Positions 2,341 through 52,698 are shown, counted from the first letter of the stretch. The stretch is 64,000 nucleotides of DNA from Burkholderiales bacterium (GCA_027493935.1 JAOSJV010000010.1:547930-611929), one strand, 5' to 3'. Numbers and translations are program-made. The notes: generated by a model not told the origin, from the letters alone.

Positions 2341-3162
2341 ATGAGATACGCACGCGTGCTGTGCGCCGCCGCGGGGCTAGCCGTGGGGCTCGCCGGCCAG
2401 CCGGCGACGGCCCAGTCCGACGACCGGACGGCCGCCGAGTTCGACAAGTTCCGCGAGGTGCTCGAGGAGGCCAACCCGGCCGAGCTCTGGGAGCTGAAGG
2501 GGGAGGAGCTCTGGAGGCAGAAGCGCGGCCCGAAGAACGCCTCGCTCGAGCAGTGCGACCTCGGCCTCGGTGCGGGCGTGCTGAAAGGCGCCTACGTTCA
2601 GCTGCCGCGCTACTTCGCCGACACCGGCAAGGTGATGGACGCCGAGCAGCGGATCGTGCACTGCATGATCACGCTGCAGGGCTTCAAGTACGAGGACCTC
2701 GCCAATCGTCCGTTCAGCCGCGGCAACTATACGCCCGACCCGGTCTCGATCGTGACCTATGTCGCCGCACAGTCGCGCGAGATGAAGATCGCCGTTCCGC
2801 AGTCGCATCCGAAGGAGCGCGAGACCTACGAGATCGGCAGGCAGATTTTCTTCTACCGCGCCGGTCCGTGGGACTTCTCCTGCGCGAGCTGCCATGGCGC
2901 GGACGGCCTGCGGATCCGCACGCAGAACCTGCCTAACTTCACCAAGCCGGGGGCGCAGGCCGCGCGCAGCTTCATCGGCTGGCCGGGCTACCGCATGACC
3001 GGCGGGGTCATGCACAGCCTGCAGTGGCGCATGAACGACTGCTTCCGCCAGCAGCGCTTCCCGGAGCCGGGCTACGCCTCCGACACGATCGCCGCGCTGC
3101 TCACCTACATGGCCGTGAACTCGAACGGCCAGCTTTACCGCGGCCCGGGCATCAAGCGCTGA
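2341..3162 (+). CDS. soxA: SoxA c-type cytochrome (single-heme type)
   Basis: It has a signal peptide and a single CxxCH site (CASCH). The conserved axial-ligand Cys context WRMNDCFRQQRFP is present. The position of the N-terminal second heme motif reads LEQCDLG, so no CxxCH is there. Confidence 0.9.
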   Translation: MRYARVLCAAAGLAVGLAGQPATAQSDDRTAAEFDKFREVLEEANPAELWELKGEELWRQKRGPKNASLEQCDLGLGAGVLKGAYVQLPRYFADTGKVMDAEQRIVHCMITLQGFKYEDLANRPFSRGNYTPDPVSIVTYVAAQSREMKIAVPQSHPKERETYEIGRQIFFYRAGPWDFSCASCHGADGLRIRTQNLPNFTKPGAQAARSFIGWPGYRMTGGVMHSLQWRMNDCFRQQRFPEPGYASDTIAALLTYMAVNSNGQLYRGPGIKR

Positions 3163-3184
3163 CCGGACGACGAGGGGAGAACCG

Positions 3185-3793
3185 ATGAGAAAGGCAATCG
3201 TTTTCGCGGGCGTCGCGGCGGTGGCGGCGGGCTGCGCCACTATGCAGGACGAGGCGGCATACCGGGAGCAGGCGGTCGCGTGGATGAAGCGCGACTTTCA
3301 CGCGCGCGGCATGGCGAAGACCGACCGGCTGAACCAGGACGAGCTGCAGCGCGCGTGCACGCAATACAACAACAATCCGCCCGAGGCGCTCGTCAAGCGC
3401 GTCGAGGCGGCCGAGATGGCGGGGATCAAGCTGCCCGCCGACGGCAAGTACCTGGGCGACTGGAAGCGCGGCCAGCGCATCGCCTCGAGCGGCCGCGGCA
3501 TGACCTGGAGTGACAAGCCCGGCGCGGCCGGCGGCAGCTGCTACAACTGCCACCAGCTCTCGCCGCAGCAGCCCTCGTTCGGCACCATCGGCCCGAGCCT
3601 GCGCGGGTACGGCAAGACGCGCGGCTACACGGCCGAAAACCGGAAGTACGTGTACCAGCGGATCTACAACTCGAAGGCGTTCTCGATGTGCTCGACGATG
3701 CCGCGGTTCGGCCATTCCGGCACGCTGAACGAGCAGCAGATCAAGGACGTTGCGGCCTACCTCATGGACCCGGCGTCCCCGGTCAACCAGTAG
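3185..3793 (+). CDS. soxX: SoxX monoheme c-type cytochrome
   Basis: 202-aa ORF with a lipoprotein-like signal (VAAVAAGC) and one heme site, CYNCH. It follows soxA. Confidence 0.85.
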   Translation: MRKAIVFAGVAAVAAGCATMQDEAAYREQAVAWMKRDFHARGMAKTDRLNQDELQRACTQYNNNPPEALVKRVEAAEMAGIKLPADGKYLGDWKRGQRIASSGRGMTWSDKPGAAGGSCYNCHQLSPQQPSFGTIGPSLRGYGKTRGYTAENRKYVYQRIYNSKAFSMCSTMPRFGHSGTLNEQQIKDVAAYLMDPASPVNQ

Positions 3794-3930
3794 CCGCCAC
3801 GCGCGCATAGAGGGGCTTGGGTGACCAGGCCCCTTTTTTCGTTCGTGGCGGACGGCTTCGCGAAACCGGGCCGTGCGCCGCATCGTGCCCCGCCGCGGCC
3901 CCCGTTCCCCACCCTCGGGTCGATCATCCG

Positions 3931-5641
3931 ATGAACCGCAGAGAATTCCTCGAAGTCCTCGCCGCGGCGGCCGCTGCCGGCCTCGTGCTCGACTCGCGTG
4001 ACGCACTCGCCCGGGCGGGCGCAGATGCGCTCTACCGCGTGCCGAAGTTCGGCAACGTCTCGCTACTGCACTTCACCGACTGCCACGCGCAGCTCCTGCC
4101 GATCCATTTCCGCGAGCCGAGCGTGAACATCGGCGTCGGTGGGGCCGCCGGCAAGCCGCCGCACCTGGTTGGCGAGCGGCTGCTGAAAGCGTTCAACGTC
4201 AAGCCCAGCACGCCGGAGGCTGCACGCGTTCACGTACCTCGATTTCGAGGCCGCGGCGAAGACCTACGGCAAGGTCGGCGGGTTCGCGCACCTCGCCACG
4301 CTGGTGAGGCGGCTGCGCGCCGAGCGGCCGGACGCGCTGCTGCTCGACGGCGGCGATACATGGCAGGGTTCGGGCGTCTCGCTCTGGACCAAGGGCGCCG
4401 ACATGATCGAGGCGTGCAAGGCGCTCGGCGTGGACGCCATGACCGGGCACTGGGAGTTCACCTACGGCGCCGAGCGCGTGGAGCAGGCGGTCAACACCGA
4501 GCTCGCCGGCAGGACCGAGTTCCTCGCCCAGAACGTGAAGACGCAGGACTTCGGCGACCCGGTGTTCAAGCCCTACACGATGCGCACGCTCGGCGGCGTT
4601 CCTGTGGCGATCGTCGGCCAGGCGTTTCCCTACACGCCGATCGCCAACCCGCGCTACATGATGGCCGAGTGGACCTTCGGCATCCAGGAGGAGGAGCTGC
4701 AGAAGGTCGTGAACGAGGCGCGCGCCAAGGGGGCGCAGGTGGTCGTGCTGCTCTCGCACAACGGCATGGACGTCGACCTCAAGCTCGCAAGCCGCGTGCG
4801 CGGGATCGACGCGATCCTCGGCGGGCACACGCACGACGGTGTGCCGCAGCCCACCGTGGTGAGGAATGCCGGCGGCCAGACCCTCGTCGCCAACTCCGGC
4901 TCGAACAGCAAGTTCCTGTCGGTGCTGGACCTGGAGGTGAAGGGCGGCAAGGTCACGGGTTACCGCTACCGGCTGCTCCCGGTGTTCGCGAACTTCCTGC
5001 CGGCCGACGACGCGATGGCGCAGGTCATTGCGAAGACTCGCGCGCCCTACGAGAAGAAGCTCGGCGAGCGGCTCGCGGTCACCGAGGGGCTGCTCTACCG
5101 GCGCGGAAACTTCAACGGCACGTTCGACCAGCTGATTCTCGACGCGATGATGGAGGTGAAGGGCGCCGAGATCGCGTTCTCGCCGGGATTCCGCTGGGGC
5201 ACGACCATCCTTCCCGGCCAGCCGATCACGTTCGAGCACGTGATGGATCAGACCGCGATTACCTACCCCTATGCCACGCTCTCCGAACTCACCGGCGCGC
5301 AGATCAAGGAGATCCTGGAAGACGTCGCCGACAACCTGTTCAATCCGGATCCGTACAAGCAGCAGGGCGGCGACATGGTGCGCGTCGGCGGGCTCGCCTA
5401 CACCTGCGTGCCGAACGCGACGATGGGCGGCCGCATCGTCGACATGCGTCTCGCGGGCAAGCCGCTCGAGGGGTCGAGGAAGTACAAGGTGGCCGGCTGG
5501 GCGCCGGTTGCCGAGGGCGCCCGCGGCGAGCCGATCTGGGAGGTGGTGTCGGGCTGGCTGCGCGACAAGAAGACGGTGCCGCCGCGCGAGTTGAACCTGC
5601 CGCGGCTGAAGGGCATCGAGGGCAATCCGGGGATCGCGTGA
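3931..5641 (+). pseudogene. soxB: Thiosulfohydrolase SoxB (dinuclear Mn 5'-nucleotidase-like), interrupted by a 1-nt frameshift at about 4222, probably a sequence error
   Basis: The N-terminus (Tat signal MNRREFLEVLAAAAAAG ... LHFTDCHAQL) is in the frame of track ORF 3817..5691 up to ...KPSTPEA. The rest (HAFTYLDFEAAAKTYGKVGGFAHLATLV.. DGGDTWQGSG ...) is in the frame of ORF 4304..5641. A lone G at 4222 separates the two frames. Joined length is about 570 aa, as expected for SoxB. Confidence 0.9.
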
Positions 5642-5814: not shown

Positions 5815-7842
5815 ATGGGGTTGCTTGACGGGCTGCTTCGCACCTTCGGGCGCCGCCGCCGGGCGGGCGCGAAAGCGGTCGCCCAGGCGGTGGAGCTTTT
5901 CGAAGAAGGCCGCGTCGACGAGGCGGAGGCGATCTGCACCCACAGGCTTGAGCGAGATCCGCGCGACGCGCAGGCCCTGAACCTGCTCGGGCTCGCGGCC
6001 GATCGACGCGGCGATCATCGGCGCGCGGCGGAGCTTCTCGAAGCGGCGGTCGCGGCCGCGCCCGAAGTCGGGCTGTTCCGCTACAACCTGGGCAATGCGC
6101 AGGTCGCAGTGGGCCGGGCGGACGACGCGCTCGCCAGCTACTCCAGGGCCGTCGCGCTCGAACCCGACCGGTTCGCGGCATGGTTCAATCTCGGTCAGCT
6201 CCACGCCGAACGCGGCCGCCCGGCTCAGGCGGTCGCCGCATTCCGGCAGGCGCTGCGCATTCGTCCGGCGAACAGCGAGGCGCGGCTCGCGCTCGCCGCG
6301 GCGCTCGTGGACTCCGTGCAAGCGGACGCCACTGGACCCGCGGCCTGCGCCGAGGCGCTGGCGCTGGTCGAGACCTGTTGGGAGCAGACCCCGGACCCCC
6401 TGCGCGCGCGCTTCGTCCTCGCGATGGCGCTCGCCGGCTGCGAGCGGTGGACCGAGGCCGCAGCGAATCTGGAGGCGGTCGTCGCCGCGCGCCCGGATGC
6501 CGTCGAGCCGCGCAACCAGCTCGCCAACTGCTACAACCGCGTTGGACGCTTGCGCGACGCGGTGCATGAGTATCGCGAGACCTTCCGCCTTGCGCCGGGA
6601 TTCCATCACGCGCTGACGAGCGTCCTCGGGACGCTCAATGCGGTCGCCGACGCGACGCCGGAGGAGATCTTCGAGGCGCACCGGGCGTGGGCGACGGCGG
6701 TCGCCGAGCCGCTCTACCCGGTCGCTCCGCGTTTTGCGAACGCGCGCGATTCCGCGCGTCGCCTGCGCGTCGGCTACGTCTCGCCGGACCTCCGGCGCCA
6801 TCCGGTGGGCACGATGTTCGCACCGGTGCTCGAGCGGCACGATGCCGCGCGCTTCGAGACGTTCTGCTACTACAACTACCCGCGCGGCGACGGCATGACC
6901 GACCGCATGCGCCGCGCCGCGCATCATTGGCGGGACATCGCCGGACAGGACGACGACGTGGTGGTCGACGCGATCCGGGCGGATGCGATCGATATCCTGG
7001 TCGACCTCGTCGGCCATACTCGGCACACGCGGCTGCCGGTCTTTGCGCGCAAGCCGGCGCCGGTCCAGGCGAGCTGGCTCGGCTACTTCAACACGACCGG
7101 CCTTGCGACGATGGACTGGTTCGTCACCGATCCCGTGTCGTCCCCGCACGGGCAGGAGCGCTATTTCGTCGAGCGCCTGCTGCGGCTGCCCGCCACGCGC
7201 TTCTGCTACGAGCCACCGGAGTTCCTGCCAGCGGTGAGCACGTTACCGGCGCGCTCCCGCGGCCACGTCACCTTCGGCTGCCTGAACAGCCTCGCCAAGG
7301 TGAACGACCGCGTGCTCGCGCTCTGGGGACGGATTCTCGCCGCCGTGCCCGGCGGGCGCCTTGTCCTGCAGGCGTCCGCGCTCAACGATCCGTGCGTGCG
7401 CGAGAACCTACGCGCGCGCGCGCAAGCGTGCGGGATCGCCTCCGAGCGGCTCGATCTGAAGCGCTTCGTGCCGGTCGAGGAAGCCGCCACGTCGTATCAC
7501 GACATCGACGTCGCCCTGGACCCGTTCCCGTTCTGCGGCGGCATGACGAGCCTGGACGCGCTGTGGATGGGCGTGCCTGTCGTGACGCTCCCGCAAGTGA
7601 TGATCGCCGGCCGTCAGACGGCGAGCATGCTCGCGAACCTCGGCCTGGTGGAGCTCATCGCCGCGGACGAGACGGGCTATGTGGCCGCGGCCGTCGGATT
7701 GGCGCACGATCTCGATCGGCTCGCGGCGCTGCGGGCAGAGCTGCGCGAGCGGTTCCGGCGCTCGCCGCTCGCTGACTACGACCGTTTTGCCCGCGATCTC
7801 GAACGCGCGTTCGCGACGATGTGGCAGGCCTGGCTGGCCTAA
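5815..7842 (+). CDS. TPR-repeat protein fused to a GT41/SPINDLY-like (O-GlcNAc-transferase-type) glycosyltransferase domain
   Basis: 675 aa. The N-terminal half is TPR repeats. The C-terminal half reads LRVGYVSPDLRRHPVG ... IDILVDLVGHTRHTRL ... KPAPVQASWLGYFNTTG, typical of bacterial SPY/OGT-like (COG3914) proteins. Confidence 0.8.
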   Translation: MGLLDGLLRTFGRRRRAGAKAVAQAVELFEEGRVDEAEAICTHRLERDPRDAQALNLLGLAADRRGDHRRAAELLEAAVAAAPEVGLFRYNLGNAQVAVGRADDALASYSRAVALEPDRFAAWFNLGQLHAERGRPAQAVAAFRQALRIRPANSEARLALAAALVDSVQADATGPAACAEALALVETCWEQTPDPLRARFVLAMALAGCERWTEAAANLEAVVAARPDAVEPRNQLANCYNRVGRLRDAVHEYRETFRLAPGFHHALTSVLGTLNAVADATPEEIFEAHRAWATAVAEPLYPVAPRFANARDSARRLRVGYVSPDLRRHPVGTMFAPVLERHDAARFETFCYYNYPRGDGMTDRMRRAAHHWRDIAGQDDDVVVDAIRADAIDILVDLVGHTRHTRLPVFARKPAPVQASWLGYFNTTGLATMDWFVTDPVSSPHGQERYFVERLLRLPATRFCYEPPEFLPAVSTLPARSRGHVTFGCLNSLAKVNDRVLALWGRILAAVPGGRLVLQASALNDPCVRENLRARAQACGIASERLDLKRFVPVEEAATSYHDIDVALDPFPFCGGMTSLDALWMGVPVVTLPQVMIAGRQTASMLANLGLVELIAADETGYVAAAVGLAHDLDRLAALRAELRERFRRSPLADYDRFARDLERAFATMWQAWLA

Positions 7843-8141
7843 CCGAAGCGGGCTGCGCGGCGACGGAGCACGTTCCTCGGCTTCCACCCCGACGAGCGAC
7901 GCCACCGGATCGGTCGCCGAACTCAGCACGCTCGCGATGGAACCGCACGTCGAATTCTGGGTCAGCCCCCTACCGAGCATGCCAGGCCCCTGTCGGTGCC
8001 CGGTGCTCGCAAGAAAACAGCGCCTTACGGAAGGTTGATTGCGGGAGCGTGGTCCGGCCACGCTGGCCGCGGCCCCGCACAGGGCACGAATGGCCCGGGA
8101 AAATGCCCGGGCCGTGCTGCTGCGCTCGTTGCGGTGCACCT

Positions 8142-8170
8142 CCAAAAGAAACCCCTCCGAAGAGGGGTTT
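8142..8170 (-). terminator. Rho-independent terminator downstream of pilA
   Basis: Perfect 9-bp stem AAACCCCTC (8149..8157) and GAGGGGTTT (8162..8170) with a CGAA loop. On the minus strand it is followed by CTTTTGG. It lies about 20 nt after the pilA stop codon. Confidence 0.6.
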
Positions 8171-8190
8171 CCTCCGCGCGGCGGGACCGC

Positions 8191-8598
8191 TTAGCGGCAA
8201 CTCGCCGGCATGTACTTCGCGGGCGTGCCCGTGCAACTCCAGACCAGCGTCGTGCCGGTCGCCGACGGGGTCAGCGTGACAGTCACCGCGGTACCCGTCG
8301 AGGTCGAAGCGCTCGAACCCTGGACAGTGATCACGCCTACGGCGGTGATGGTGCCGCCCGTGATCTTGCCGTAGGTGGTGACTTCGAGGCCCGAGCCGAT
8401 CGACGCGGTGGTCTGGTCGGATTGGTACTTCTCGGTCGCCGCGGTCCTCAGGGCGCTCGCCGCGACGATGAGCTCGGACACCTTCGCGCGGATGGTGTAA
8501 TCCTGATATGCGGGCAGCGCGATCGCCGCCAGGATACCGATGATCGCCACGACGATCATCAGCTCGATCAGGGTGAAACCTTTCTGAATTGCCTTCAT
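8191..8598 (-). CDS. pilA: Type IVa major pilin (PilA)
   Basis: [34 protein letters not shown] is a class III prepilin leader with the conserved N-terminal helix. The C-terminus has a disulfide loop ([14 protein letters not shown]). The C-terminal half is Ser/Thr-rich ([24 protein letters not shown]). Confidence 0.93.
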
Positions 8599-8654
8599 GC
8601 AGTTCTCCTGTAAGTGCGAAGTGCGGTGTACCTAATCCACCACATCCCTCCTTA

Positions 8655-8670
8655 AGCAACCCGTGTGCCA
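8655..8670 (-). promoter_or_regulatory. Sigma54 (-24/-12) promoter of pilA
   Basis: The minus strand reads TGGCAC-ACGGG-TTGCT, an exact TGGCAC-N5-TTGCW match. It lies about 57 nt upstream of the pilA ATG, which is preceded by a GGAG ribosome-binding site. Confidence 0.65.
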
Positions 8671-8851
8671 CGGTCCAGCGCCCTGCCCTCTCTTGTCTTA
8701 ACCATCTGTTATTTATATAAATTTAATCAGCGAACGAAGCATCACCTTGAAATGACCGTGAACTATTCCCGAAGCCTCCACGCCGCCTCGCGGCGCGGTG
8801 TGACGCTCTACGGCACCCCTTGGCCCTCGGTTGGCAAGTGCCGGGATTCGG

Positions 8852-10527
8852 TCACGCGGCATGGCCCACGGCGGCGACGAGATCCTCGAAAACCGGGCGC
8901 CAGTCCAGCGGACGGGGCTGGCGAAACAGGCGTACGGACGGGTACCAGAGCATGCGCTCACCCTCGGCTCCGTAGCGCCACTCGGCAGTGTACGGCACAA
9001 GAACCAGCGCGCGCGCGCCCAGGGCGCCGGCGAGATGCACGACCGCCGTGCAGACGCTGACGACGCAATCGAGCGCACACACCAGCGCGGCAGTCTCGTC
9101 ATAGTCGCGCTCGCTCTCTTCGAACCGATGCACAGGCGCGCCGGCCGCCGCGCAGGCGGCAATCTCCTCGCCCCATTCGCCGTACTGCAGGCTAACCAAC
9201 GTCGCGGTCGCCGGCCGCAGCGCCTCGCTTAGCGCAGCAAGAGGAATGGATCGCAGGTCACGCCGAGTCTTGAGCAGCCCTCCGCGCCAGGACAGGCCGA
9301 CCCAGGGCCGCGGCCCGAGCGCCGTCAGCCGCTCCCGCCAGCGGGCGACGCGGGCGGGAGCGGCGCGCAGGTAGCCGCTGTGCGTCGGAAAGTCGTTCGC
9401 CTGGCGACGAAAGAAGCGCGGCAGACTGCCCATCGCCACCTGGACGTGCGGTGGGTCCACGGTCGCCGGCCACACGGGATCTCGATCGCGCACTCGCCCC
9501 GGAACGACATCGACACCGGGAAAAGAGCGCCGTACGAGGACGCGAGCCGGGGCTCGCACTCGACCACGCAACTCGCCACGCGCGCCAGGGCGTCCGGCAG
9601 GCACGAAAGGAACATGATCTGGTCACCGAGCCCCTGCTCGGCGTAGACGAGCAGCCGCGCGTTCGGCGCGGAGCCGCCATCCCACTGGGGGTGTACGAAT
9701 GGTCGCGCCACCGCCAGCTGCACCTTCCAGCGTGCTTCGTAGGCCTCCCAGCCCTCGGCGAAGCGCCCAACCTTCAGCAGCGCCTCCGCGCGGAGGATCG
9801 CGGCCTGCGCGTCGTCCGGGTTGCGCGCGACGCCCTGTGCCATGAGTCGAAGCCCCTCCGCCGCCCGGCGCTGCTCGACCAGTGCCCAGCCGAGATTGCA
9901 CAGCACCCCGGAAGACTGCGGATCGAGTTCGAACGCCCGTCGCAACAGACGCTCGCCCTCGTCCAGCTGCGCCAGCTGACGCGCCTTCAGGAAGCCAAGA
10001 AAGTTGTAGCCGGCGGCACTCCGCGGATGGCGCGCGAGCAGCTCTTCCAGCCGCGCGATGGTGTCTTCGAACCGGCCGCGCCGATAGAGCCAATGGGCGT
10101 GATTGTAGAGCCCTGCCGCGCTCCCCGGCACGCGGGCGAGAAACTCCGCGTGCACCGCCTCGGCCTCGTCATCGCGGCCGAGCCGCTCCAACGCCCGGAG
10201 CACCCCGACGTAAGCGCCTTCATCCGTGGGTGCGTAGTGCAGCGCGAGCGAGAACAGGTCGAGCGCCGATTCGGCATCGTTCGCCGCCATATAGGCCTGC
10301 CCACCCGCGACGTGGAGCGGAACTTCCTCGGGACGCTCGGCCAGGAGCCGCTCTGCGAGCTCCGCGGCCCGCCCCGCCTCGCCTGCGTCGAGCAGCCGCG
10401 TGACCGCGTCGGCACCAGCCGTCTCGCGCGGACGCGCCGATTCGAGCGCCGGCGCCCGACGCCCGAGCGGTGACAGGTCCCCGCTAGACGTCGGATCCCG
10501 GTTGCGCCACCTTCCGAGCCACCCCAC
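8852..10527 (-). pseudogene. TPR-repeat / GT9 (heptosyltransferase-like) glycosyltransferase fusion, paralog 1; frameshift at about 9516-9520
   Basis: The N-terminal TPR part and ...LLVYAEQGLGDQIMFLSCLPDAL..CVVECEPRLASSYGALFP are in the frame of ORF 9325..10527. The continuation GVDVVPGR..GSLPRFFRR..VGLSWRGG..DYDETAALVCALDCVVSVCTAVVHLAGALG is in the frame of ORF 8852..9604. It is collinear with the intact paralog at 10544..12274. Confidence 0.8.
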
Positions 10528-10543
10528 CGCCGTGTCTTCCCGG

Positions 10544-12274
10544 CTATCCGATTCCCTCGCCGCGGCGCTCCAGCCCTGCCACAGCCGACGCCGGCGGCGC
10601 GAATGCTCCCGCCCGCAACCGATCGCGCGCCTCGGTCACGACCGGCTCCCACCCGTTCGGCGCACGCTGGCGCAACAGCCGGACCGACGGATACCACACC
10701 ATGGCCTCCCCCTGATCGCCGTATCGCCATTCCGCAGAGTAGGGGACCAGCACGATCGCGGGCCGCGCAAGGGCGCCTGCGAGATGCACGAGCGCCGTGC
10801 AGACGGTCACGATACCGTCGAGGGCGCAGACCAGCGCAGCGGTCTCGTCATAGTCGTCAATTGCTTCCTGCCAGTGCCACACGGTCTTCCCGGTCGCGCG
10901 CTTGAACCCCGCGAGTTCTGCCGCGCAATCGTTGTACTGGAGGCTCACGAACTCGGCGTCGACGCCAAGCAGGACCGGCGCGAGCGCCGCGAGATCCAGG
11001 GAGCGGAGCTGGCGCCGCGATCGCATCCAGCCGCCGCGCCAGGACACGCCGATCGAGCGCCGTCCGCCGAGCCGGTCCAGCCGGTCGCGCCAACGCGCAA
11101 CCTTCGAGGCGTCGGCCTTGAGATAGCCTTGGTGAGGCAGGAACGCGTCGCGGTGCCGGCGAAAGAACCCGGGCAGGCTTCCCACGGGCGCTTGCGCCCC
11201 GATTGGCGCGACCTCCGTCAGCCAGGCGGGGAGCGGATCGCTCAGCCGGCCGGGGTAGACGCGCGCGCCGGGGAAAGAGCGCGCGAAGATCGGCGCGAGC
11301 CGCGGCTCGCATTCGATGACGCAGCGCTCCACGCGCGCCATCGCATCGGGTATGCACGAAGCGAACATGATCTGGTCGCCGAGCCCCTGCTCGCCGAACA
11401 CCAGTAGCGCGCCCTCGCGCAAACGCGACCCGTCCCAAGCCGGAAAGCCGAACGGGCGCTTCGCGGCCGTCGGGTCGGCGAAGCGCGCGTCGTAGGCATC
11501 CCAGCCCGCCGCGAACTCTCCGCGCTTGAGATCCGCGGTCGCCGCGAGGAAACGCACCTCGTCGCCTCCTGCGCGCACCGTCAGCGCCCGCCGCAAGAGC
11601 GCCATCCCCTCGTCGTAGCGCCGCTGCTCGTTCAGGATCCAGCCGAGATTGGCGAGCGCGGCGCCGTAGTCAGGATCCAGCGCGAGCGCCTGGCGAACTC
11701 TCGATTCGCCGCGCTCGAAATCCGCGAACTCGCGCGCAGCAATCAGTCCGAGGAAGTTGAGCGCGTGCTTGTTGGTCGGATTCAGCGCAAGCGCCTGCTC
11801 GAGCGCTGCCTTCGCCTCGTCGAACCGCCCTTCGACCTGGGCCACTCGGCCGAGTTGGTAGAACGCCTCGTCCGAATCCGGATTGCGGGCGAGATACTCT
11901 CGCGAGGCGATCTCGATCTCGCGCAGGCGGCCGAGCCGGTCGAGCGCCAGCACCAAGCCGCGATAGGCCGATTCGCTCCGCGGGTCGTAGTGCAGAGCGA
12001 GCGTGAAGTCATCGAGCGCGTCCTCGGCTCTGCCGAGCCCGAGATTCGCGTGCCCGGCGAGCGCGCTCAACTCCGGATCGTCGGGATGACGCTCGAGGCC
12101 ACTCTGCGCCGCCCGCAGCGCGGCCTTCGGGCTTCCGGACTCCAGCGCGCGAACGGCGGCGCGGCGCGCCACGGCGGCGTCGGCAACCGAATCGTCGGCG
12201 GCCACCGCACCCGGCGGCCCGGATCCCGGCGGCTGAGTCCTGTCCCGCCGCAGTTTCTTGGTCACCCAACCCAT
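10544..12274 (-). CDS. TPR-repeat / GT9 (heptosyltransferase-like) glycosyltransferase fusion, paralog 2
   Basis: Intact 576 aa. The N-terminal half is TPR repeats. The C-terminal half reads LLVFGEQGLGDQIMF ... IGVSWRGG ... DYDETAALVCALDGIVTVCTALVHLAGALARP, a GT-B fold resembling the RfaF/RfaC donor-binding region. Confidence 0.8.
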   Translation of the reverse strand: MGWVTKKLRRDRTQPPGSGPPGAVAADDSVADAAVARRAAVRALESGSPKAALRAAQSGLERHPDDPELSALAGHANLGLGRAEDALDDFTLALHYDPRSESAYRGLVLALDRLGRLREIEIASREYLARNPDSDEAFYQLGRVAQVEGRFDEAKAALEQALALNPTNKHALNFLGLIAAREFADFERGESRVRQALALDPDYGAALANLGWILNEQRRYDEGMALLRRALTVRAGGDEVRFLAATADLKRGEFAAGWDAYDARFADPTAAKRPFGFPAWDGSRLREGALLVFGEQGLGDQIMFASCIPDAMARVERCVIECEPRLAPIFARSFPGARVYPGRLSDPLPAWLTEVAPIGAQAPVGSLPGFFRRHRDAFLPHQGYLKADASKVARWRDRLDRLGGRRSIGVSWRGGWMRSRRQLRSLDLAALAPVLLGVDAEFVSLQYNDCAAELAGFKRATGKTVWHWQEAIDDYDETAALVCALDGIVTVCTALVHLAGALARPAIVLVPYSAEWRYGDQGEAMVWYPSVRLLRQRAPNGWEPVVTEARDRLRAGAFAPPASAVAGLERRGEGIG

Positions 12275-12307
12275 GCTCGCATCGGCCGCACGCGCAACGT
12301 GTCCCGG

Positions 12308-12733
12308 CTATACATACGCTTCGCGTTGACTGCAGGCCAGCATCTGCGCCGCCGCGCAGCGCGACTCTTCGGCGTACTGGCCGTCGCGGACCCCCCCGAA
12401 GTACGGACCACCGAGCGCATCGTGGACCATCCTCCCGGCATAGCGCTCGTCGCGCAGCCGCCAGAGCCTCTCGACGTCGTCGAGCATCAGCCCGTCGCAG
12501 TCCATGAGCACGCTCCAGCCTTCGTAGTCCGCCAGATGCGGGGTCACAAAGCGGCTGAACGCAAAGTCCGTCGACTGCAAAGGAACACGCTTGCGCGCGC
12601 ACGCGCCGTCGAGCTCGGGGAGCATCAGCGGGGCGACGCACTCTGGCTCGCTCGCGCGGACATAGATGCTATGTGCGAGCACGCTGAACGCGACCGCCTC
12701 GCGTGGATCGAACCCGATGAAGGCCCTGATCAC
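12308..12733 (-). CDS. GT8-like glycosyltransferase-family protein (DxD motif), short and possibly truncated
   Basis: Start taken at GTG 12733..12731, which overlaps the upstream stop codon (GTGA). The protein reads IRAFIGFDPREAVAFSVLAHSI ... QSTDFAFSRFVTPHL ... GWSVLMDCDGLMLDDV. Family assignment is by recalled similarity only. At 141 aa it is shorter than I would expect. Confidence 0.45.
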   Translation of the reverse strand: MIRAFIGFDPREAVAFSVLAHSIYVRASEPECVAPLMLPELDGACARKRVPLQSTDFAFSRFVTPHLADYEGWSVLMDCDGLMLDDVERLWRLRDERYAGRMVHDALGGPYFGGVRDGQYAEESRCAAAQMLACSQREAYV

Positions 12734-13395
12734 GCCGTACGTTTCTCCGAGCCGACCCGGCTCTCCACGTACCGAGGACCCTCGGGCAGATCCTCGCGGT
12801 TCTGGATCCAGAACTCCCACACGAGCCCGGGATGACGCCCAGCCACCGCGCCGACCAGCTCGCCCCACCACTCGGGCGGTCGGATCGTGCAGTGAGCGTT
12901 TTCGCCGGTGGGCAGGCGCTTGCGCGCCGGATAGCACGCGACGTTAGCGAACACGAACCGCTCGGCGTATCCGAAGATCTCCTCGACGATCCAGGGGATG
13001 TCTTCCTCCGGGCAGTGCTCCAGCACATCGGTCGACACCACCCCGTGAAACCTGCCCTCGGGAAGCTTGCTGAACGGCGGATAGCTCGGGTCGAAGCAGT
13101 GCACGAAGTCGACGTCCCAGTAGTCGGTGATGCTGGAGACCACCAGCCCGTCCGGCAGAGTAACGTCGCGCAGGTCGTATTGACGCCCCTTGCCGCTGCC
13201 GTAGTCGAGCAGGTTCGCGGCACCGGTAAGGTCGATCAGACGCTTGATCCGCGCCGCCTGCGCGGGTAGGCTCAGCCCCGGAAACGTGTCGGCCGCGGGG
13301 ACGTTGAGAAACCGCTCGCCCTCGGCGTGCATCGTGCGGTACAGGGCGGTGAGCTCGCGGTAGCGCTCGCTTGGGTGCTCTCTGGTGAAGGTCAT
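12730..13395 (-). CDS. Class I SAM-dependent methyltransferase
   Basis: 221 aa with motif I LLDYGSGKG and an acidic-loop/post-I pattern (VVSTDVLEHC). It is translationally coupled to the downstream GT8-like gene. Confidence 0.7.
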   Translation of the reverse strand: MTFTREHPSERYRELTALYRTMHAEGERFLNVPAADTFPGLSLPAQAARIKRLIDLTGAANLLDYGSGKGRQYDLRDVTLPDGLVVSSITDYWDVDFVHCFDPSYPPFSKLPEGRFHGVVSTDVLEHCPEEDIPWIVEEIFGYAERFVFANVACYPARKRLPTGENAHCTIRPPEWWGELVGAVAGRHPGLVWEFWIQNREDLPEGPRYVESRVGSEKRTA

Positions 13396-13544
13396 CTGCC
13401 GCGCTGCGTGGTTTAGGGTACTCGTCGCATTCTACCAACGCACTAGTCCGACCCGAGTGCAAAGTTCACGCGATGGTCCGGCCGCGCGTTGCCAATTGCG
13501 CCGAAAGTCCGCCGGGCCGAGGCCGAGCCTGAAGCGCCACCGGC

Positions 13545-15377
13545 TCAGAGCTCCGCGGCCACCGCGCACACCACCTCGCGCCAGTCGCCTGACACCCGCT
13601 GCCGGACGAGCCGGGCCGTCGGATACCACGGCATCGTGCTTCCTTCGCGGAGATAGCGCCACTCGGGGTTCGCCGGCACCATCACCCGCATGTCGGCGCC
13701 GAGCGCGCCGCCGAGATGGACGATCCAGCTGCACACGGTGATTGTCACGTCGAGCGCGCTAACAAGCGCGGCCGTCTCGTCGGCGTCGCCGAGCGCATCG
13801 TGCCAGTGATGAAAGCGGCCCGGCGCGAGCTCGCCGAGCGCGGCGAGATCGACCTCGGAAGCGGCATGCTGCACGCTGACGAACGCGACGCCCTCCCGTG
13901 CCAGGATCGGACGCAGCGCCGCCGGCTCGATCGACCGCTGCGTGCGGCGGGTCTTAGCGAGGCCGCCACGCCATGCTATCCCGACCGTGCGGCCGGCGCC
14001 GAGACCGCTCAACCGCTCCCGATAACGCGCCACCTTCGCTGGATCGGGGCGCAGATATCCGGCGTGCCGGGGGAAGCTCGCGACGTCGCGCCGGTAGCGG
14101 CCCGGCAGCGAGCCCGCTGCAATCTGCACGTCGATGACGCCAGCCTCCGCAACCCAGGGGTGCGAGCCGTGCAAGCGGCCGGCGAAGACGGCGGCATGCG
14201 GAAACGAGCGCGCGAACAGCGCCGCCAGCCGGGCATCGCACTCGATCACGACACGGCCGGCCTCGGCGATGACGTCCGCAAAGCAGTTGGCGAACATGAT
14301 CTCGTCGCCGATGCCCTGCTCGGCATAGACCAGCACCGGCTTGCCCGTCAGCGGCTCGCCCCGCCACTCCGGAAACGGGAAGCCGCGGCGCGGAGTCTCG
14401 GCAGTCTCGAATCTCGCGGCGTAGTCGTCCCAGCCGCGGCCGAAGTCGCCGGTGGCGAGTCGCAGGAATCCGCGCAGCTGGCGCACGTTCGGATCGCCGG
14501 GCCGTTGCTCGAGTGCGCGCTCGAGGTGGATCTCGGCGCCGGCGATGTCTCCGGCGTCCTGCAGGACCCGCGCCAGGGTGCAGCGCGCCTCGGTGAAGCC
14601 GGGCGAGCGCTCGACGAGCGGCACGACCAAGGCGCGCGCCTCTTCGAGCGCCCCCCGGTCCGCCAGAATCACCGCGAGGTTGTTCAGCGTCGTAGGCGCA
14701 GCCGGGTCGCGCGACAGAGCCGACCGGATCTCGCGCTCGGCGTCGTCCAGCCGGCCGGCCTCGCGCAGCGCGAGCGCCAGGTTGTTCCGCAGCAGCACGT
14801 TGCTCTCATCGAGCGCTACGGCGCGCGCGAAATGAGCAAGTGCCGTCTCGCCGTCGCCCAGCCGCTGCAGCGCGACGCCGAGGTTACCGTGCGCCTCGGC
14901 ACTGTCCGGCGCGCGATTCAGGACGTAACGCAGCAGCGATGCGGCGTCTTTCGCCTGGTCCAGACCGATTAACAGCACCGCAAGCTCCAGGCGCGGCCTC
15001 AGATCCTCGGGCGAGAGCGCGATCGCGCGCATGTAGGCCTTAGCCGCGTGGCGCAGGTTTCCGGCATCGCGCATGACCGCTGCAAGCGTCAGCCAGGCAT
15101 CGCTCCGGTGCCGCTCGCGGGAGAGCACGTCCTTGACCAGGCGCGCCGCCGCCGCGAGCTCGCCGAGCTCGCGGCGGACGTCTGCGAGTAGCAACCGTGC
15201 CTCGGCGTCTTGCGCCCGCATCGCCAGCAATCCCTCCAAGGCGGTCACGGCCGCGCGCAACTCCCCGGCGTTGCGCAGCGCAGCCGCGTTCCTCAGGGTG
15301 CGGTCGCGGGCGCGCCGCGCCGGGCCCTGCAGAATCCCGTTGACTATTCGCTGAAGCAAGACTGTGCGGTCCTGCAC
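13545..15377 (-). CDS. TPR-repeat / GT9 (heptosyltransferase-like) glycosyltransferase fusion, paralog 3
   Basis: Intact 610 aa with the same architecture and motifs: VLVYAEQGIGDEIMF, VGIAWRGG, DADETAALVSALDVTITVCSWIVHLGGALG. Confidence 0.8.
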   Translation of the reverse strand: MQDRTVLLQRIVNGILQGPARRARDRTLRNAAALRNAGELRAAVTALEGLLAMRAQDAEARLLLADVRRELGELAAAARLVKDVLSRERHRSDAWLTLAAVMRDAGNLRHAAKAYMRAIALSPEDLRPRLELAVLLIGLDQAKDAASLLRYVLNRAPDSAEAHGNLGVALQRLGDGETALAHFARAVALDESNVLLRNNLALALREAGRLDDAEREIRSALSRDPAAPTTLNNLAVILADRGALEEARALVVPLVERSPGFTEARCTLARVLQDAGDIAGAEIHLERALEQRPGDPNVRQLRGFLRLATGDFGRGWDDYAARFETAETPRRGFPFPEWRGEPLTGKPVLVYAEQGIGDEIMFANCFADVIAEAGRVVIECDARLAALFARSFPHAAVFAGRLHGSHPWVAEAGVIDVQIAAGSLPGRYRRDVASFPRHAGYLRPDPAKVARYRERLSGLGAGRTVGIAWRGGLAKTRRTQRSIEPAALRPILAREGVAFVSVQHAASEVDLAALGELAPGRFHHWHDALGDADETAALVSALDVTITVCSWIVHLGGALGADMRVMVPANPEWRYLREGSTMPWYPTARLVRQRVSGDWREVVCAVAAEL

Positions 15378-15423
15378 GCTGCCCGGCGGGCATCGCCGTG
15401 CCGCGTGCGCGCGACGGCCGCCA

Positions 15424-17248
15424 TCACCGCTCCGGCCTTGCGCGGTCGCGCCACGCGTCGAGCGCGCGCGCCACCGCCTCCAGCACCGGCCCCCAGGCGC
15501 CAGGCGCCGACTGCCGGAAGAGTCGCGCGGCCGGGTACCACGGCATGCTGTCGCCGGACACCCCGTAGCGCCATTCGGGAACGAAGGGCAGCATCGCCCA
15601 CGTGGCCCGCCCGGTCGCCCCGGCCAGCTGCGCGACGGTATTGTCGATCGTGATCACGAGATCCAGGGCGCCCATCAGCGCCGCGGTTTCGGCGAGATCC
15701 GTCAGGGCCTCCGGCAGCCGGTGGATTAGCACGCCGTGCGCCTGCCGGATCTCCGCCAGCTCGGCCTCGGTGCAGTCGTGCTGCAGGCTCACCCAGCGCA
15801 CGCCCGATGCGTGCAGCGCCCGCGCGAGCATCGCGAGCGGGACGGAGCGTGCCGGTCCGCGCGAGCGTGCCGTCCCGCCCCGCCACGATAGGCCGACCCA
15901 CGGCCCCTCCCCGAGCCCGGCGAGTCGCCTTCGCCACGCAGCGACGCGCCGCACGCTGCCGGCCAAGTACGACTCCCGGCGCGGAAATTCGGCGCGGGTC
16001 CCACGCAAGTACATCGGCAGGCTTGCGATCGGCACATGGTAGTCGAGGCGCGCTCTGCTCATGTCGTCGGCCGGGCTCTCGGCGCTCCCGAGAACGGTCG
16101 CGCGCGGGAACGAGTGCCGGTAGAGGGAGACCAAGCGCGCGTCGCATTGGATCACGCATCGACCTGCCCTTTCGATCAGATCTGGCAGGCAGGAGGCGAA
16201 CAGGATCTCGTCGCCCACGCCCTGCTCCGGCTGTACCAGGATGCCACGGTCGGCGAGGTCCTCGCCCTGCCACCGCGCCGGCGGAGGCGTCGTGGGGAGT
16301 CGCGGCCGCGCGCGGTCCTCGGACAGGAGCCGCAACTCGTAATCGGGCCAGCCCTCGCCGAAGCGCCCGAGCGCGAGCAGGGTGATCGCGCGGTGAAAGC
16401 GCGCGGAAACGTGGTCGGGAGCGTGCGCGAGAGCGCAGCCGAATGCCTTCAGCGCAGCGTCGAAGCGCCCGAGCTCGTGCAGCGCGGCACCCCCTGCGGG
16501 AGTGTACGTTGGCGTCGTCTACACCGAGCTCGAGTGCCCGGTCGAGCGCGGCGAGCGCCGGCTCCGCGTCGAACGCGCCGCGCAGGTGCAGTGCTCCGAG
16601 AGCGGCGAACGCCGGTGCGTGATCCGGCATGCGTTCGGTCACTTCGCGCAGCCAAGCGATATCCGCGCTCGGTACGGCGTCATCGGGCAGCCAGCCCACG
16701 AGGTTCGATAGCGCGGGCACGAAGCGTGGGTTCGCACGCAGCGCCCGCCGGAAGAGATCGAGGGCCGCCGCCCGGTCGCCGCCGCGGGCCCTGATCAATC
16801 CGAGGTTGTTCAGCGCCGCGGCATGCGTGGGATCGACCTGCAGCGCACGCTCGTAGCAGGCCCGCGACTCCGTATCGCGCCCGAGCATGGCGTAGGCATT
16901 GCCGAGGTCGACGTGCGCGGCCGCCGAGTCGGCGGGGGCGGCGTCGATCGCGGCCCTGAGCAGATCGATTGCCCGGGCCCCGTCGCCGCCCTGCGCCTCC
17001 AGCCGTCCGAGCACCCCGAGCACTCCGGGATCGCGGACACGGTCCCGCGCTACCGCCCGGCGCAGGACGCAGCGCGCCTCGTCGGCCCGCCCGGCCGCCT
17101 CGAGCGCGAGTGCCTCCGCCATGGCTGCACGCGCGCCACCGCCGTCGCGAACGCGAGCGGTGGTGCCGAGTGCCATGCGTAGGAGTTGCTTGAGCAATTT
17201 TCGCTCGCTCGTATCCCGGCCGGTGCAGCGCGTCACACTTGAGCCCAC
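15424..17248 (-). pseudogene. TPR-repeat / GT9 glycosyltransferase fusion, paralog 4; frameshift in the C5 run 16490..16494
   Basis: The TPR N-terminus is in the frame of ORF 15344..17248 up to ..LELGVDDANVH. From AALHELGRFDAALKAF.. onward it reads into the frame of ORF 15424..16335 (ILVQPEQGVGDEILF, VGLSWRGG, DLAETAALMGALDLVITIDNTVAQLAGATG). Confidence 0.8.
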
Positions 17249-17398: not shown

Positions 17399-17749
17399 AT
17401 GGCGTTGATGTCTCTGTTCTCGCGCAAAGAGATCACTGAGTTCGCGAAAGGCCTCGCCGTCAGCTTGTCCAAACGCTATCCGCCGGCCCTGGACTTCAAT
17501 CCGGAGAAGCGCGTCTCTGAGAACCGCCTCACCAAGGTTCTCGAGGACACGCTCCACCAGGCGGTCGAGTTCCAGCAGAAGCACAAGCTTGGTCTGTTCG
17601 GCAAGGCGAAGCTAGGCAACGAGTTCCGCTGGCAACTCAAGGAGCTCGGATACACCGAGAAGTTCGTCGAGGTCGCCACGGAGGGCCTGATGGTGTACAT
17701 CACGCGCGGCTCGGCCGGCAACGCCTCGCAGAGCAAACAGCCGGGCTGA
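17399..17749 (+). CDS. Hypothetical protein (116 aa)
   Basis: ATG ORF preceded by AAGGAG. Its composition is protein-like and non-repetitive (MALMSLFSRKEITEFAKGL...). I recognise no family. Confidence 0.5.
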   Translation: MALMSLFSRKEITEFAKGLAVSLSKRYPPALDFNPEKRVSENRLTKVLEDTLHQAVEFQQKHKLGLFGKAKLGNEFRWQLKELGYTEKFVEVATEGLMVYITRGSAGNASQSKQPG

Positions 17750-17843: not shown

Positions 17844-19547
17844 TCAACCACCGCCGCCTGTCACGCCGCTCCGCTCGACCTCGTCGATCTGCTCGGGATC
17901 GAGGAACTGGCGTGCGTACTGCAGATAGACCCCGCTGCGGACGAATATGTCAAAGAGGTCCGGATCGATGTGCCCGTTCTGCTTGAACTGGCCCAGGATC
18001 CGCAGCGACTCGGACAGCGTCTTGCCCTGCTTGTAGGGCCGATCCTTGGCGGTCAGCGCCTCGAAGATGTCGGCGATGCCCATGATGCGCGCCTGCACCG
18101 ACATCTGCTCGCGCGTGAGCCCCCGTGGGTAGCCCTTGCCGTCCATGCGCTCGTGGTGGCCGCCGGCGTACTCCGGTACGTTCTTCAGGTGCTTCGGCCA
18201 GGGCAGCGCCTCGAGCATCTTGATGGTCGAGTCGATGTGGTGGTTGATGATCTCGCGCTCCTCGGTGGTGAGCGTGCCGCGCGCGATGGTCAGGTTCTTG
18301 ATCTCGTCCTCGGTGAGGAAGTCGGCGGTGTTGCCGCTGATCTCGCGCCACTTGTAGCCGGTGCCGATGCGGCGCACCCGCTCCTGCTCCTCGCGCGACA
18401 TCGATTCGCCGCCGATGTTGCAGCGGCGCACGAACTTGCGGTCCTCGTCGAGCTGGCGCAGCCGTTCGCGCAGCTGCTGGTCGATCTCGAATAGCCGGGT
18501 GCGCTGGGTGATCTCGTCGATATCGCGCCGCTTGGCGAGCTCGAGCCTGCGGCGCATCGCGTCGAGCTCGGCGTCGCGGATCAGGACCTCGAAGCGCGTG
18601 TCGACCAGATGGATGCGGTCGAAGATCGTCTCGAGCTTGGTCGCCTTGTCGACGACGTGCACCGGAGTGGTGATCTTGCCGCAGTCGTGCAGCAGCCCGG
18701 CGATCCTCAGCTCGTAGCGGTCCTTGTCGGTCATGCAGAAGTCGGCGAGCGGACCCTCGCTCGCCGCGTCCGCGGCCTCTGCGAGCATCATGGTGAGCTG
18801 CGGGACCCGCTGGCAGTGCCCGCCGGTATACGGCGACTTCTCGTCGATCGCGGTGTTGATCAGCTCGATGAACGACTCGAACAGGGCCTCGAGCTGGATG
18901 ATCAGGGCGCGGTTGGTGAGCGCGATGGCGGCCTGCGAGGCGAGCGACTCGGCGAGCCGCTGGTCGGAGTTGGAGAAGGCGACGATCTCGCCGGTGGCGA
19001 GATCCTGGCAATTGATGAGCTGCAGGACGCCGATGATCTCGCCCTCGTGGTTCTTCATCGGTACCGTCAGGAACGACTTCGAGCGGTACCCGGTCTTCTG
19101 GTCGAAGCGGCGGGTACCGGAGAAGTCGAAGCCCTCCTCCGTGTAGGCGTCGGCGATATTCACCGTCCTGCCGGTGAGCGCCGCGTACGCGGCTACCATC
19201 GAGTTATTCGGCTCGCCGTCGCGGTAGAGCTGGATCGGGAAGAAGGGGATCGGATTTCCGGTGGTGCCGCCGAGAGCAATGTTGAGCGAGGCCGTGCGGA
19301 CGATCTCGAAATGCAGCTCCGGATGACCGTCGCCGCCTCTTAGCAGGTAGAGCGTGCCGCCATCCGCACGCGTGATGGTCTTGGCGGCGACGAGAATCTT
19401 CTCGAGCAGCGCATTGAGGTTCTTCTCGAGCGAAAGCGCCGCCCCGATCTCGTTCAGCTGGTCCAGCCGGCGGAACAGATCGTCGGTCGTGTCGGACGGT
19501 CCTCGCGCCCCGGTCCCGGCCATTGGGGCGACGTTCGTGCCTGGCAT
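17844..19547 (-). CDS. GAF-domain HD-GYP phosphohydrolase (putative c-di-GMP phosphodiesterase) with a large insertion inside the HD domain
   Basis: Start at ATG 19547, with AGGAGG upstream, 11 nt after the stop codon of the ATPase gene. It has an N-terminal GAF domain, then HCQRV ... LLHDCGKITTP and a distal HHERMDGKGYPRGL signature. Confidence 0.85.
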   Translation of the reverse strand: MPGTNVAPMAGTGARGPSDTTDDLFRRLDQLNEIGAALSLEKNLNALLEKILVAAKTITRADGGTLYLLRGGDGHPELHFEIVRTASLNIALGGTTGNPIPFFPIQLYRDGEPNNSMVAAYAALTGRTVNIADAYTEEGFDFSGTRRFDQKTGYRSKSFLTVPMKNHEGEIIGVLQLINCQDLATGEIVAFSNSDQRLAESLASQAAIALTNRALIIQLEALFESFIELINTAIDEKSPYTGGHCQRVPQLTMMLAEAADAASEGPLADFCMTDKDRYELRIAGLLHDCGKITTPVHVVDKATKLETIFDRIHLVDTRFEVLIRDAELDAMRRRLELAKRRDIDEITQRTRLFEIDQQLRERLRQLDEDRKFVRRCNIGGESMSREEQERVRRIGTGYKWREISGNTADFLTEDEIKNLTIARGTLTTEEREIINHHIDSTIKMLEALPWPKHLKNVPEYAGGHHERMDGKGYPRGLTREQMSVQARIMGIADIFEALTAKDRPYKQGKTLSESLRILGQFKQNGHIDPDLFDIFVRSGVYLQYARQFLDPEQIDEVERSGVTGGGG

Positions 19548-19558
19548 CGCGCGCCCTC

Positions 19559-21919: not shown

Positions 21920-22129
21920 GTCATCGCATCCTGTATGGTCTGCAGCCGGTGCCAATCCGGTCGCGCAACGCCCACGCAATCGAGTGCCACGGGTCCCGGC
22001 GGCGCAGCAGGACATGCTAGTCTCCGGGCCGGTGCCGGGCAACCGTGGGCTGCCGGGCGATGCGGCTTATTGCGGCCGTGGGGCGGAACCCGCCCGGCCA
22101 GGGCGCTTCCGGGGGCCCGGAGCGACGTT

Positions 22130-23207: not shown

Positions 23208-23251
23208 ATTCTCGGGTATCCGTGGCTCGTGGTGCGCCGGCGCACGGCCGG

Positions 23252-33268: not shown

Positions 33269-33327
33269 GCTGATCTCCGATGACTTGGCGCCGGGCGAAG
33301 GATCACCCGCCTGCGCGCGAATCCCGC

Positions 33328-47670: not shown

Positions 47671-47787
47671 GAAGCTAGCTCAGAAGCGCGGCCGTGCTTG
47701 TGCGTGAACTGGGGTCGTACGAACAAGGGGCGAGCCCTTGCAAATCCCCTCTTTCGCGGTGGCATTCTCGTCTCGAGATAGGTTCTA
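47671..47787 (-). repeat. Intergenic repeat, copy B (DUF1638-PhyH spacer), inverted relative to copy A at 38394..38547
   Basis: See copy A. The repeat starts at the TAG stop codon of the DUF1638 gene (47785..47787). Confidence 0.75.
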
Positions 47788-48534: not shown

Positions 48535-48546
48535 GGCGCTGGCCTC

Positions 48547-49967: not shown

Positions 49968-49981
49968 TGGCCTGATTCCCC

Positions 49982-51864: not shown

Positions 51865-51895
51865 CGGCGATCGACCCCGGGTGCGGAACGCCTCC

Positions 51896-52696: not shown

Positions 52697-52698
52697 GG

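Follow-up and report, generated by a model that had tools for sequence, protein, structure and literature searches.

A type IVa pilin gene linked to a tandem array of TPR-glycosyltransferase genes in a Burkholderiales genome: a candidate island for cytoplasmic pilin O-glycosylation

The routes to glycosylated type IV pilins given in a 2025 review of bacterial O-glycosylation are those of O-oligosaccharyltransferases (O-OTases) only, which work in the periplasm with lipid-linked glycans (PMC12645811). Filament subunits can also be targets of cytoplasmic glycosyltransferases (GTs) that carry tetratricopeptide repeats (TPRs). In FlmG of Caulobacter and Brevundimonas, the TPR domain binds the filament subunit and the C-terminal GT-B domain sets donor specificity (PMC7591256; 10.1101/2022.03.25.485807); its reported range is limited to Caulobacterales (10.1101/2023.12.03.569772). 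In cyanobacteria, the cytoplasmic TPR-GT Ogt is required for glycosylation of the pilin PilA with N-acetylglucosamine (GlcNAc) and for normal piliation (PMC9306852). Here we describe an island on a 64,000-nucleotide stretch of a Burkholderiales bacterium genome (GCA_027493935.1 JAOSJV010000010.1:547930-611929; hereafter the window), in which a type IVa pilin gene, pilA, lies between a TPR-GT41 gene and an array of four paralogous TPR-GT genes with GT9-like C-terminal domains (Table 1). The island may be a system for stepwise O-glycosylation of the pilin in the cytoplasm, following the logic of FlmG and flagellin, TibC/AAH and autotransporters, HMW1C and HMW1, and cyanobacterial Ogt and PilA; we put the probability of this reading at about 50%.

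The association between pilA and TPR-GT genes recurs in the genomes of many environmental bacteria. A scan with a profile of the paralogues' C-terminal domain, with one genome per species, yielded 79 loci that were mapped by tblastn. The recurrent cassette consists, in this order, of a divergent orf116, one to seven TPR-GT9-like genes with methyltransferase and GT8 genes interleaved, one or two copies of pilA, and one to three copies of the GT41 gene. An orthologous pilA (53-73% identity over the whole length) is present at 23 of the 79 loci; at 19 of these 23 it shares the strand of the last TPR-GT gene and follows it within 1.3 kb, and GT41 copies (1-3) flank it at 13. Copy numbers in the cassette vary widely, and it also occurs without the flanking synteny, e.g., at the Methylococcus loci L004 and L010. 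In the reverse direction, we took 80 type IV pilin loci from a metagenome sample and counted those with at least 3 kb of flanking sequence: of 13 pilins that are ≥47% identical, 4 have TPR-GT genes next to them, compared with none of 22 more distant pilins. The same sample contains cassettes of GT41, orf116 and pilin without GT9-like genes. The linkage noticed in a preliminary description of this DNA is therefore conserved and not due to chance, with the reverse association restricted to the most similar pilins.

Table 1. Features of the island and adjoining genes (positions counted from the first nucleotide of the window)
Feature	Position	Strand	Length	Remarks
TPR-GT41 (SPY/OGT-like)	5815..7842	+	675 aa	convergent with pilA; Pfam GT41
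Intrinsic-terminator-like hairpin and T run	8152..8165	-		directly after pilA; terminator scan and sequence reading
pilA, type IVa prepilin	8191..8598	-	135 aa	Pfam Pilin and N_methyl
Sigma54-type -24/-12 element	8656..8670	-		58 nt upstream of the start codon (ATG) of pilA
TPR + GT9-like GT-B paralogue 1	8852..10527	-	558 aa when intact	frameshift at ~9538 in the window assembly
TPR + GT9-like GT-B paralogue 2	10544..12274	-	576 aa	intact; modelled structure
GT8-like gene, probable remnant	12308..12733	-	141 aa	start overlaps methyltransferase stop (GTGA)
Class I SAM-dependent methyltransferase-like	12730..13395	-	221 aa	weak Methyltransf_23 matches
TPR + GT9-like GT-B paralogue 3	13545..15377	-	604 aa by gene call (610 from first GTG)	intact
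TPR + GT9-like GT-B paralogue 4	15424..~17176	-	583 aa when intact	frameshift at ~16490 in the window assembly
orf116, small conserved soluble protein	17399..17749	+		divergent from array; no Pfam match
GAF + HD_5 (HD-GYP-like) protein	17844-19841	-		adjoins island
GAF-MshEN-T2SSE secretion/pilus-type ATPase	19559-22042	-		adjoins island
cNMP-binding protein	22440-23999	-		adjoins island

The type IVa pilin gene pilA is monocistronic and has a σ54-type promoter. The perfect pattern TGGCAC-N5-TTGC occurs only once in the 64-kb window, as the element upstream of pilA (TGGCACacgggTTGC), and 21 of 33 orthologous pilA genes have a similar -24/-12 element 46-68 nt upstream; a terminator-like hairpin follows the coding sequence. 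Serine and threonine make up 38% of the globular part of the protein, as computed from its composition. The median for TPR-GT-linked pilins is 27% compared with 23% for others (not corrected for phylogeny), and the window pilin is an extreme case. The Pfam matches and the perfect -24/-12 element bear out the earlier proposal of a σ54-type pilA; the protein contains the stretch described earlier, and its segment 94-118 is rich in Ser/Thr. At NCBI the protein is named ‘pilin’ (MCZ7565274.1), and the exact sequences of pilA, GT41, the methyltransferase and orf116 are present in the NCBI metagenome-assembled genome (MAG) “Burkholderiales bacterium” (MCZ7565273-283).

The four TPR-GT paralogues are co-directional and 36-47% identical in pairwise comparison, each combining TPRs with a conserved C-terminal domain. 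Among the four, the TPR domains have diverged further (23-37% identity) than the catalytic domains (40-55%), as would be expected if acceptor recognition diversifies. No signal peptide or transmembrane segment is predicted in any TPR-GT enzyme of the island, and all are predicted to be soluble, cytoplasmic proteins. The array of four that had been proposed thus holds in number and direction, with two qualifications: paralogues 1 and 4 are frameshifted in the window, and the GT9 assignment stands by fold (see below). Paralogue 1 is split into open reading frames (ORFs) at 9325..10527 and 8852..9604, and paralogue 4 into ORFs at 15344..17248 and 15424..16335, each pair in different frames. We compared both sites with three Logan contigs, assembled from different sequencing runs, whose DNA is otherwise 100% identical to the window. 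At ~9538 the difference is CC vs. CCC, and the two contigs that cover the site (L001 and L002) encode an intact paralogue 1; at ~16490 it is G5 vs. G4, and L001, which alone covers this site, encodes an intact paralogue 4. Because the window contains further broken genes and the Logan versions are intact, the frameshifts look like assembly errors and not like pseudogenes. Phase variation was considered as their cause and rejected, since the tracts are just 2-5 bases long and other window genes are also split. The former end of the region at 17,248 is the start of the longest ORF; in the contig with the intact gene, the called gene begins at ~17176. The exact protein of paralogue 2 was found in Logan assemblies only, and a 573-aa member of its cluster is present in the “Burkholderiales bacterium” MAG named above.

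Sequence profiles place the C-terminal domain of the paralogues at the margin of GT9. The Pfam GT9 family (PF01075) matches paralogue 2 below threshold (E = 0.005, 16.6 bits, cut-off 22), matches one other paralogue at E = 0.028 and does not match the remaining two; the weak match spans the C-terminal nucleotide-sugar motif. TIGR02193 (heptosyltransferase I) scores ≤18 bits against a cut-off of 185. Searches of the PDB with phmmer and profiles returned TPR proteins only, and the profile of the C-terminal domain alone found no GT9 chain or other relative. Structural models were more informative. An AlphaFold2 model of paralogue 2 (predicted local distance difference test score, pLDDT, 92) comprises seven TPR-like helix pairs and two Rossmann-like halves, and a fold search with the full-length model shows a resemblance to SPY/OGT (TPR + GT-B), with TPR/OGT matches dominating. 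With a model of the C-terminal domain only (pLDDT 89), the best Foldseek match is WaaF (1psw; E = 1.9e-9, TM score 0.56). The top 30 matches are mostly WaaF, WaaC, a Veillonella GT9 enzyme and TibC (E = 1.9e-9 to 1e-5, TM score 0.45-0.56), GT9 enzymes ranking ahead of other GT-B families; the best matches also include 2gt1 and 6dfe, with TibC (4rap/4rb4) at E = 1e-7 to 1e-5. In these models the paralogues thus appear GT9-like by fold, and marginally so by sequence, below the Pfam threshold.

The residues that are invariant in the family (EQGxGD, SWRGG, ETAAL..ALD, EWRY and WYP..R..RQ) are kept in all four paralogues, including the aspartate of the N-terminal EQGxGD. The catalytic aspartate of GT9 enzymes we take, from the WaaC literature, to be that of the N-terminal GD motif, and the D(S/T)G..H motif to be that of donor binding. 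In a motif alignment, paralogues 1-3 have C-T-A or C-S-W at the place of D(S/T)G (VCT..H or VCS..H), and paralogue 4 has IDNT..Q (D-N-T, with Q in place of His; around LDLVITIDNTVAQLAG). Hits for which paralogue 4 is the best match occur at ~10 other loci, a hint that the arrays contain two catalytic subtypes, VCT/VCS..H and IDNT..Q. The kept invariant residues, together with the catalytic lysine of the GT41 protein (see below), make it likely that the paralogues and GT41 are active. Since the GT9 donor motif is altered, heptose cannot be inferred as the donor. The label “GT9 heptosyltransferase-like” therefore stands for the fold (WaaF, WaaC, TibC) and not for the donor motif or for the Pfam and NCBIfam scores, which are below their cut-offs. 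The proposed methylated heptose- or hexose-containing glycan likewise does not follow from the genes: the donor motif is altered in three of the four paralogues, the GT8-like gene is probably a remnant, and the target of the methyltransferase may be sugar or protein.

The assignment of the GT41 gene is firmer. Its product matches Glyco_transf_41 (PF13844) above the curated threshold (E = 1.1e-55, 189 bits, cut-off 25), and its matches in the PDB are TtOGT (5djs; 4e-104), SPINDLY (2e-101) and OGT (2e-81). Multiple TPR Pfam matches at residues ~30-260 indicate an N-terminal TPR superhelix. Lys495 (in FGCLNSLAK) aligns with the catalytic K341 of TtOGT (the 5djs chain is K341M). This lysine, which corresponds to K445 in Synechococcus elongatus and K842 in human OGT, presumably contacts the nucleotide-sugar phosphate. 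A convergent SPY/OGT-like TPR-GT41 gene beside pilA, as described previously, is thus upheld by the Pfam and PDB matches and by the kept lysine.

Two further genes interrupt the array, and a third diverges from it. All 13 members of the methyltransferase family match Methyltransf_23 weakly (best 1.4e-6); the NCBI name is ‘class I SAM-dependent methyltransferase’ (SAM, S-adenosylmethionine). The gene is kept in 17 related loci at 50-69% identity, with two additional weak matches at ~25%. Its GTGA overlap with the GT8-like ORF is as first reported. The GT8 half of the pair fared less well: relative to 14 aligned homologues (mostly 219-240 aa, one 247 aa), the window ORF has an in-frame internal deletion of ~90 residues, which is present in every assembly, including the Logan contigs. 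All 14 full-length homologues match Pfam GT8 (PF01501; best 1.3e-8), whereas the window copy, with ~90 core residues gone and DxD (DCD) kept, has no PF01501 match and is probably a remnant. Homologues of orf116 are present in 23 related loci. In three cassettes with GT41 only (L094, L095 and L097), the orf116 homologue lies directly upstream of the related pilin; L097 has one GT9-like gene ~4 kb away on the opposite strand, and otherwise none is adjacent in the three. The orf116 protein could be an adaptor, a chaperone or a regulator.

Among described systems, cyanobacterial Ogt/OgtA (S. elongatus, Nostoc punctiforme) resembles the island in gene arrangement, with a TPR-GT41 gene adjoining the major pilin gene, and the window GT41 keeps the equivalent catalytic lysine. 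The island differs in that its host is a proteobacterium and GT41 is one of five TPR-GTs, the GT9-like array being dominant and accompanied by the methyltransferase, GT8 and orf116 genes. The cyanobacterial precedent is a requirement for glycosylation; direct modification is putative in both systems. In view of this precedent (PMC9306852), it was too strong to call such a mechanism undescribed for type IV pilins. Our literature search found nothing on TPR-GT9-like enzymes together with pilins. FlmG, named earlier as an example, is apt for architecture: as described (PMC7591256), it is like the paralogues in size (~560-600 aa), in its N-terminal TPR and C-terminal GT-B domains, and in being soluble; like it, the paralogues would act before export. 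FlmG is single-copy, in contrast to the tandem array described here, and the filament protein linked to the array is a Sec-exported type IV pilin rather than a flagellin exported by the flagellar type III secretion system. A flagellin acceptor and a CMP-nonulosonic acid (NulO) donor are marks of the FlmG class; the window contains no flagellin gene and no NulO gene.

The C-terminal domain invites comparison with other GT9-like enzymes. TibC and AAH, protein O-heptosyltransferases of autotransporters, have the same GT9-like GT-B fold (4rap) and act in the cytoplasm on serines of a Sec-exported protein. TibC, however, lacks TPRs and forms an iron-containing dodecamer, three of the four paralogues have lost the ADP-heptose-type D(S/T)G motif, and no autotransporter, the acceptor of TibC/AAH, is encoded in the island. 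The lipopolysaccharide heptosyltransferases WaaC and WaaF (CAZy GT9) are the best structural matches, and an N-terminal GD motif appears to be conserved; they have no TPRs, use lipid A-Kdo as acceptor, and are matched in sequence below the gathering score. The O-OTases TfpO/PilO, TfpM, PglS, PglL and TfpW have the same kind of target and are likewise often encoded next to the pilin gene. Those enzymes are polytopic membrane proteins that transfer lipid-linked glycans in the periplasm, and none is encoded in the scanned window. No polytopic ORF of the Wzy_C or GT-C type was found at 5.8-17.7 kb or among the ORFs of the 64-kb window supported by G+C at third codon positions (GC3), in agreement with the earlier statement that no pilin oligosaccharyltransferase is present here.

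The analysis shows the TPR-GT architecture, a predicted location in the cytoplasm, retained family residues and a conserved linkage to pilA; from these we infer the acceptor, the donors, the order of action and a role for orf116. In the cytoplasm, the TPR domains would bind prepilin soon after its synthesis, or its globular part rich in serine and threonine, and the GT-B domains would transfer sugars singly from soluble nucleotide sugars onto serine or threonine. Different paralogues may serve different sites or add successive sugars or linkages, with the diverged TPR domains giving site or acceptor specificity. The methyltransferase may cap a sugar or methylate the pilin. The modified prepilin would then pass through Sec and be assembled. 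Glycosylated Sec substrates can be exported, as those of TibC/AAH and HMW1C are.

Several observations weigh against such a pathway. The main difficulty is that prepilins are believed to be targeted to Sec while still being translated, which leaves little time for the periplasmic domain to be modified in the cytoplasm. That this pilin is glycosylated at all is something we infer, and this genome carries a degenerate GT8 gene. Part of the linkage signal reflects common descent: many of the linked loci belong to related MAGs that share the flanking GAF-MshEN-T2SSE ATPase, GAF-HD and SoxB genes, so the 23 linked loci are not independent events. The syntenic arrays L008, L011 and L034 have no pilin in the visible flank. 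The TPR-GT9-like family is mostly not linked to pilins, with ~35 more distant loci lacking one; the neighbours of an Azospirillum homologue are polysaccharide genes (O-antigen ABC-transporter, sulfotransferase and rfb), and NeuB, CMP-transferase and 2-epimerase (nonulosonic-acid) genes adjoin 3 of the 79 arrays (L011, L048 and L060). Membership of the family fixes neither acceptor nor donor.

Some of these points suit another explanation, in which the TPR-GTs act on a different surface or secreted protein, or on polysaccharide or lipopolysaccharide, and pilA is merely co-inherited within a variable surface island. The position of most family members away from pilins is in line with this; the O-antigen context in Azospirillum agrees with it, as do flagellin genes near 2 of the 79 loci (L039 and L056, both distant family members), and flanks common to many linked loci mean that the adjacency is partly inherited. 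Mere co-inheritance nevertheless fits poorly with the near-constant position and orientation of pilA, which persists directly behind the last TPR-GT gene in spite of changing copy numbers and flanks, with an association confined to the most similar pilins in the reverse sample, and with the existence of GT41, orf116 and pilin cassettes that lack GT9-like genes. The island also contains no polysaccharide export or polymerase genes. We regard a different acceptor as unlikely.

It is less probable still that the island enzymes build a lipid-linked oligosaccharide that an O-OTase of the PglL, TfpO or TfpM type, encoded elsewhere, transfers en bloc in the periplasm. This would be in line with the sole route given for proteobacterial pilins in the 2025 review (PMC12645811) and would sidestep a problem of topology, since no Sec substrate would have to be modified on the cytoplasmic side; our O-OTase scan covers the ORFs of the window. 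Yet neither the island nor the scanned window ORFs include an initiating phosphoglycosyltransferase, a flippase or a Wzy_C-type transferase, and TPR fusions are typical of enzymes with protein acceptors (FlmG, OGT, SPY) and atypical of those that build lipid-linked glycans. Decay of the island to a non-functional state in this genome is very improbable: the frameshifts at ~9538 and ~16490 and the GT8 deletion common to all assemblies would fit it, but the contigs from other runs are intact at these two sites, the differences are one-base homopolymer lengths that, with unrelated window genes split too, are typical of error-prone assembly, and the invariant residues persist in all four paralogues.

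Cytoplasmic O-glycosylation of the pilin can be set in a broader and more tentative frame, for which we see somewhat less than an even chance. An uncharacterised TPR-GT9-like family would have been recruited into fast-evolving tandem arrays (1-7 copies) in environmental Burkholderiales and Methylococcus-type Gammaproteobacteria, several of them with SoxB; together with GT41, the methyltransferase and orf116, these arrays would build a multi-site or multi-sugar pilin O-glycan before Sec, independently of lipid carriers and distinct from the O-OTase routes. If the pilin is indeed glycosylated in the cytoplasm, the stepwise cytoplasmic route known from FlmG, Maf, TibC, HMW1C and cyanobacterial Ogt would extend to proteobacterial type IV pili, and a very large unnamed family would gain its first functional handle. 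Its members would be modular enzymes for glyco-engineering, in which the TPR part specifies the acceptor and the GT-B part the donor. A question for cell biology would also be posed, namely how a co-translationally targeted Sec substrate is glycosylated in the cytoplasm.

The TPR-GT9-like family is large: of 8,000 candidates that were scored, 1,684 protein clusters proved homologous. It reaches Planctomycetota, Acidobacteriota, Verrucomicrobiota and Alphaproteobacteria, without an adjacent pilin in those groups, and NCBI calls some of its members ‘tetratricopeptide repeat protein’ and others ‘glycosyltransferase family 9 protein’. In plasmid and chromid records of Azospirillum the domain is strongly expanded, occurring at up to 12 places per replicon, and it is also found on Ralstonia megaplasmids and secondary replicons of Burkholderia. 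In the Ralstonia record, which is unannotated, no pilin or flagellin motif was seen. We take these replicons as a warning that acceptors may be diverse, and no more than that. We looked for position-specific orthologues of the window paralogues in other arrays and rejected this idea, as all identities are ~45-50% with no clean pattern; it seems that duplications within single lineages renew the arrays. Nonulosonic-acid genes were also rejected as a clue to the donor, given their presence at only three arrays and their absence from the window. One of these arrays (L011, 12381-20505) includes a single 1116-aa ORF that fuses two TPR-GT9-like units, followed co-directionally by genes for a CMP-sugar cytidylyltransferase, a UDP-GlcNAc 2-epimerase, FemAB/GNAT, NeuB and a methyltransferase.

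Beyond orf116, at least 10 related MAGs have the GAF-HD and GAF-MshEN-T2SSE genes in synteny with the island, and ~6 have the gene for the cyclic nucleotide monophosphate (cNMP)-binding protein there. The three possibly encode a pilus motor controlled by nucleotide second messengers and linked to this pilin; no pilC, pilD or pilQ gene is present in the 64-kb window. Immediately upstream of the island (2341-5641, + strand) are genes for SoxA/TsdA-type and c-type cytochromes and for a SoxB-like protein with a 5'-nucleotidase domain, and SoxB adjoins the island in six related loci.

The window has a G+C content of ~69% and contains further split, fused or truncated genes at 24033-26263, 31056-31987, 31997-35077, 36875-37591 and 42247-42942. 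CHASE2 and cyclase domains are encoded in overlapping ORFs (24033-26263), the N and C domains of a formyltransferase are divided between two ORFs (31056-31987), a single ORF of 1026 aa joins a TPP-enzyme (TPP, thiamine pyrophosphate) to a CoA-transferase, and TctA and FTHFS are represented by their C-terminal parts only. This suggests that the MAG assembly is prone to indels and probably derives from long reads. At 47785-55993 (- strand) lies a gene cluster for corrinoid-dependent methyl transfer, with DUF1638, URO-D/MtaA-like, B12-binding and FAD oxidoreductase genes and a 1143-aa ORF that combines Fer2-RACo (corrinoid activase) with MTHFR; TRAP and Tct transporters are encoded nearby.

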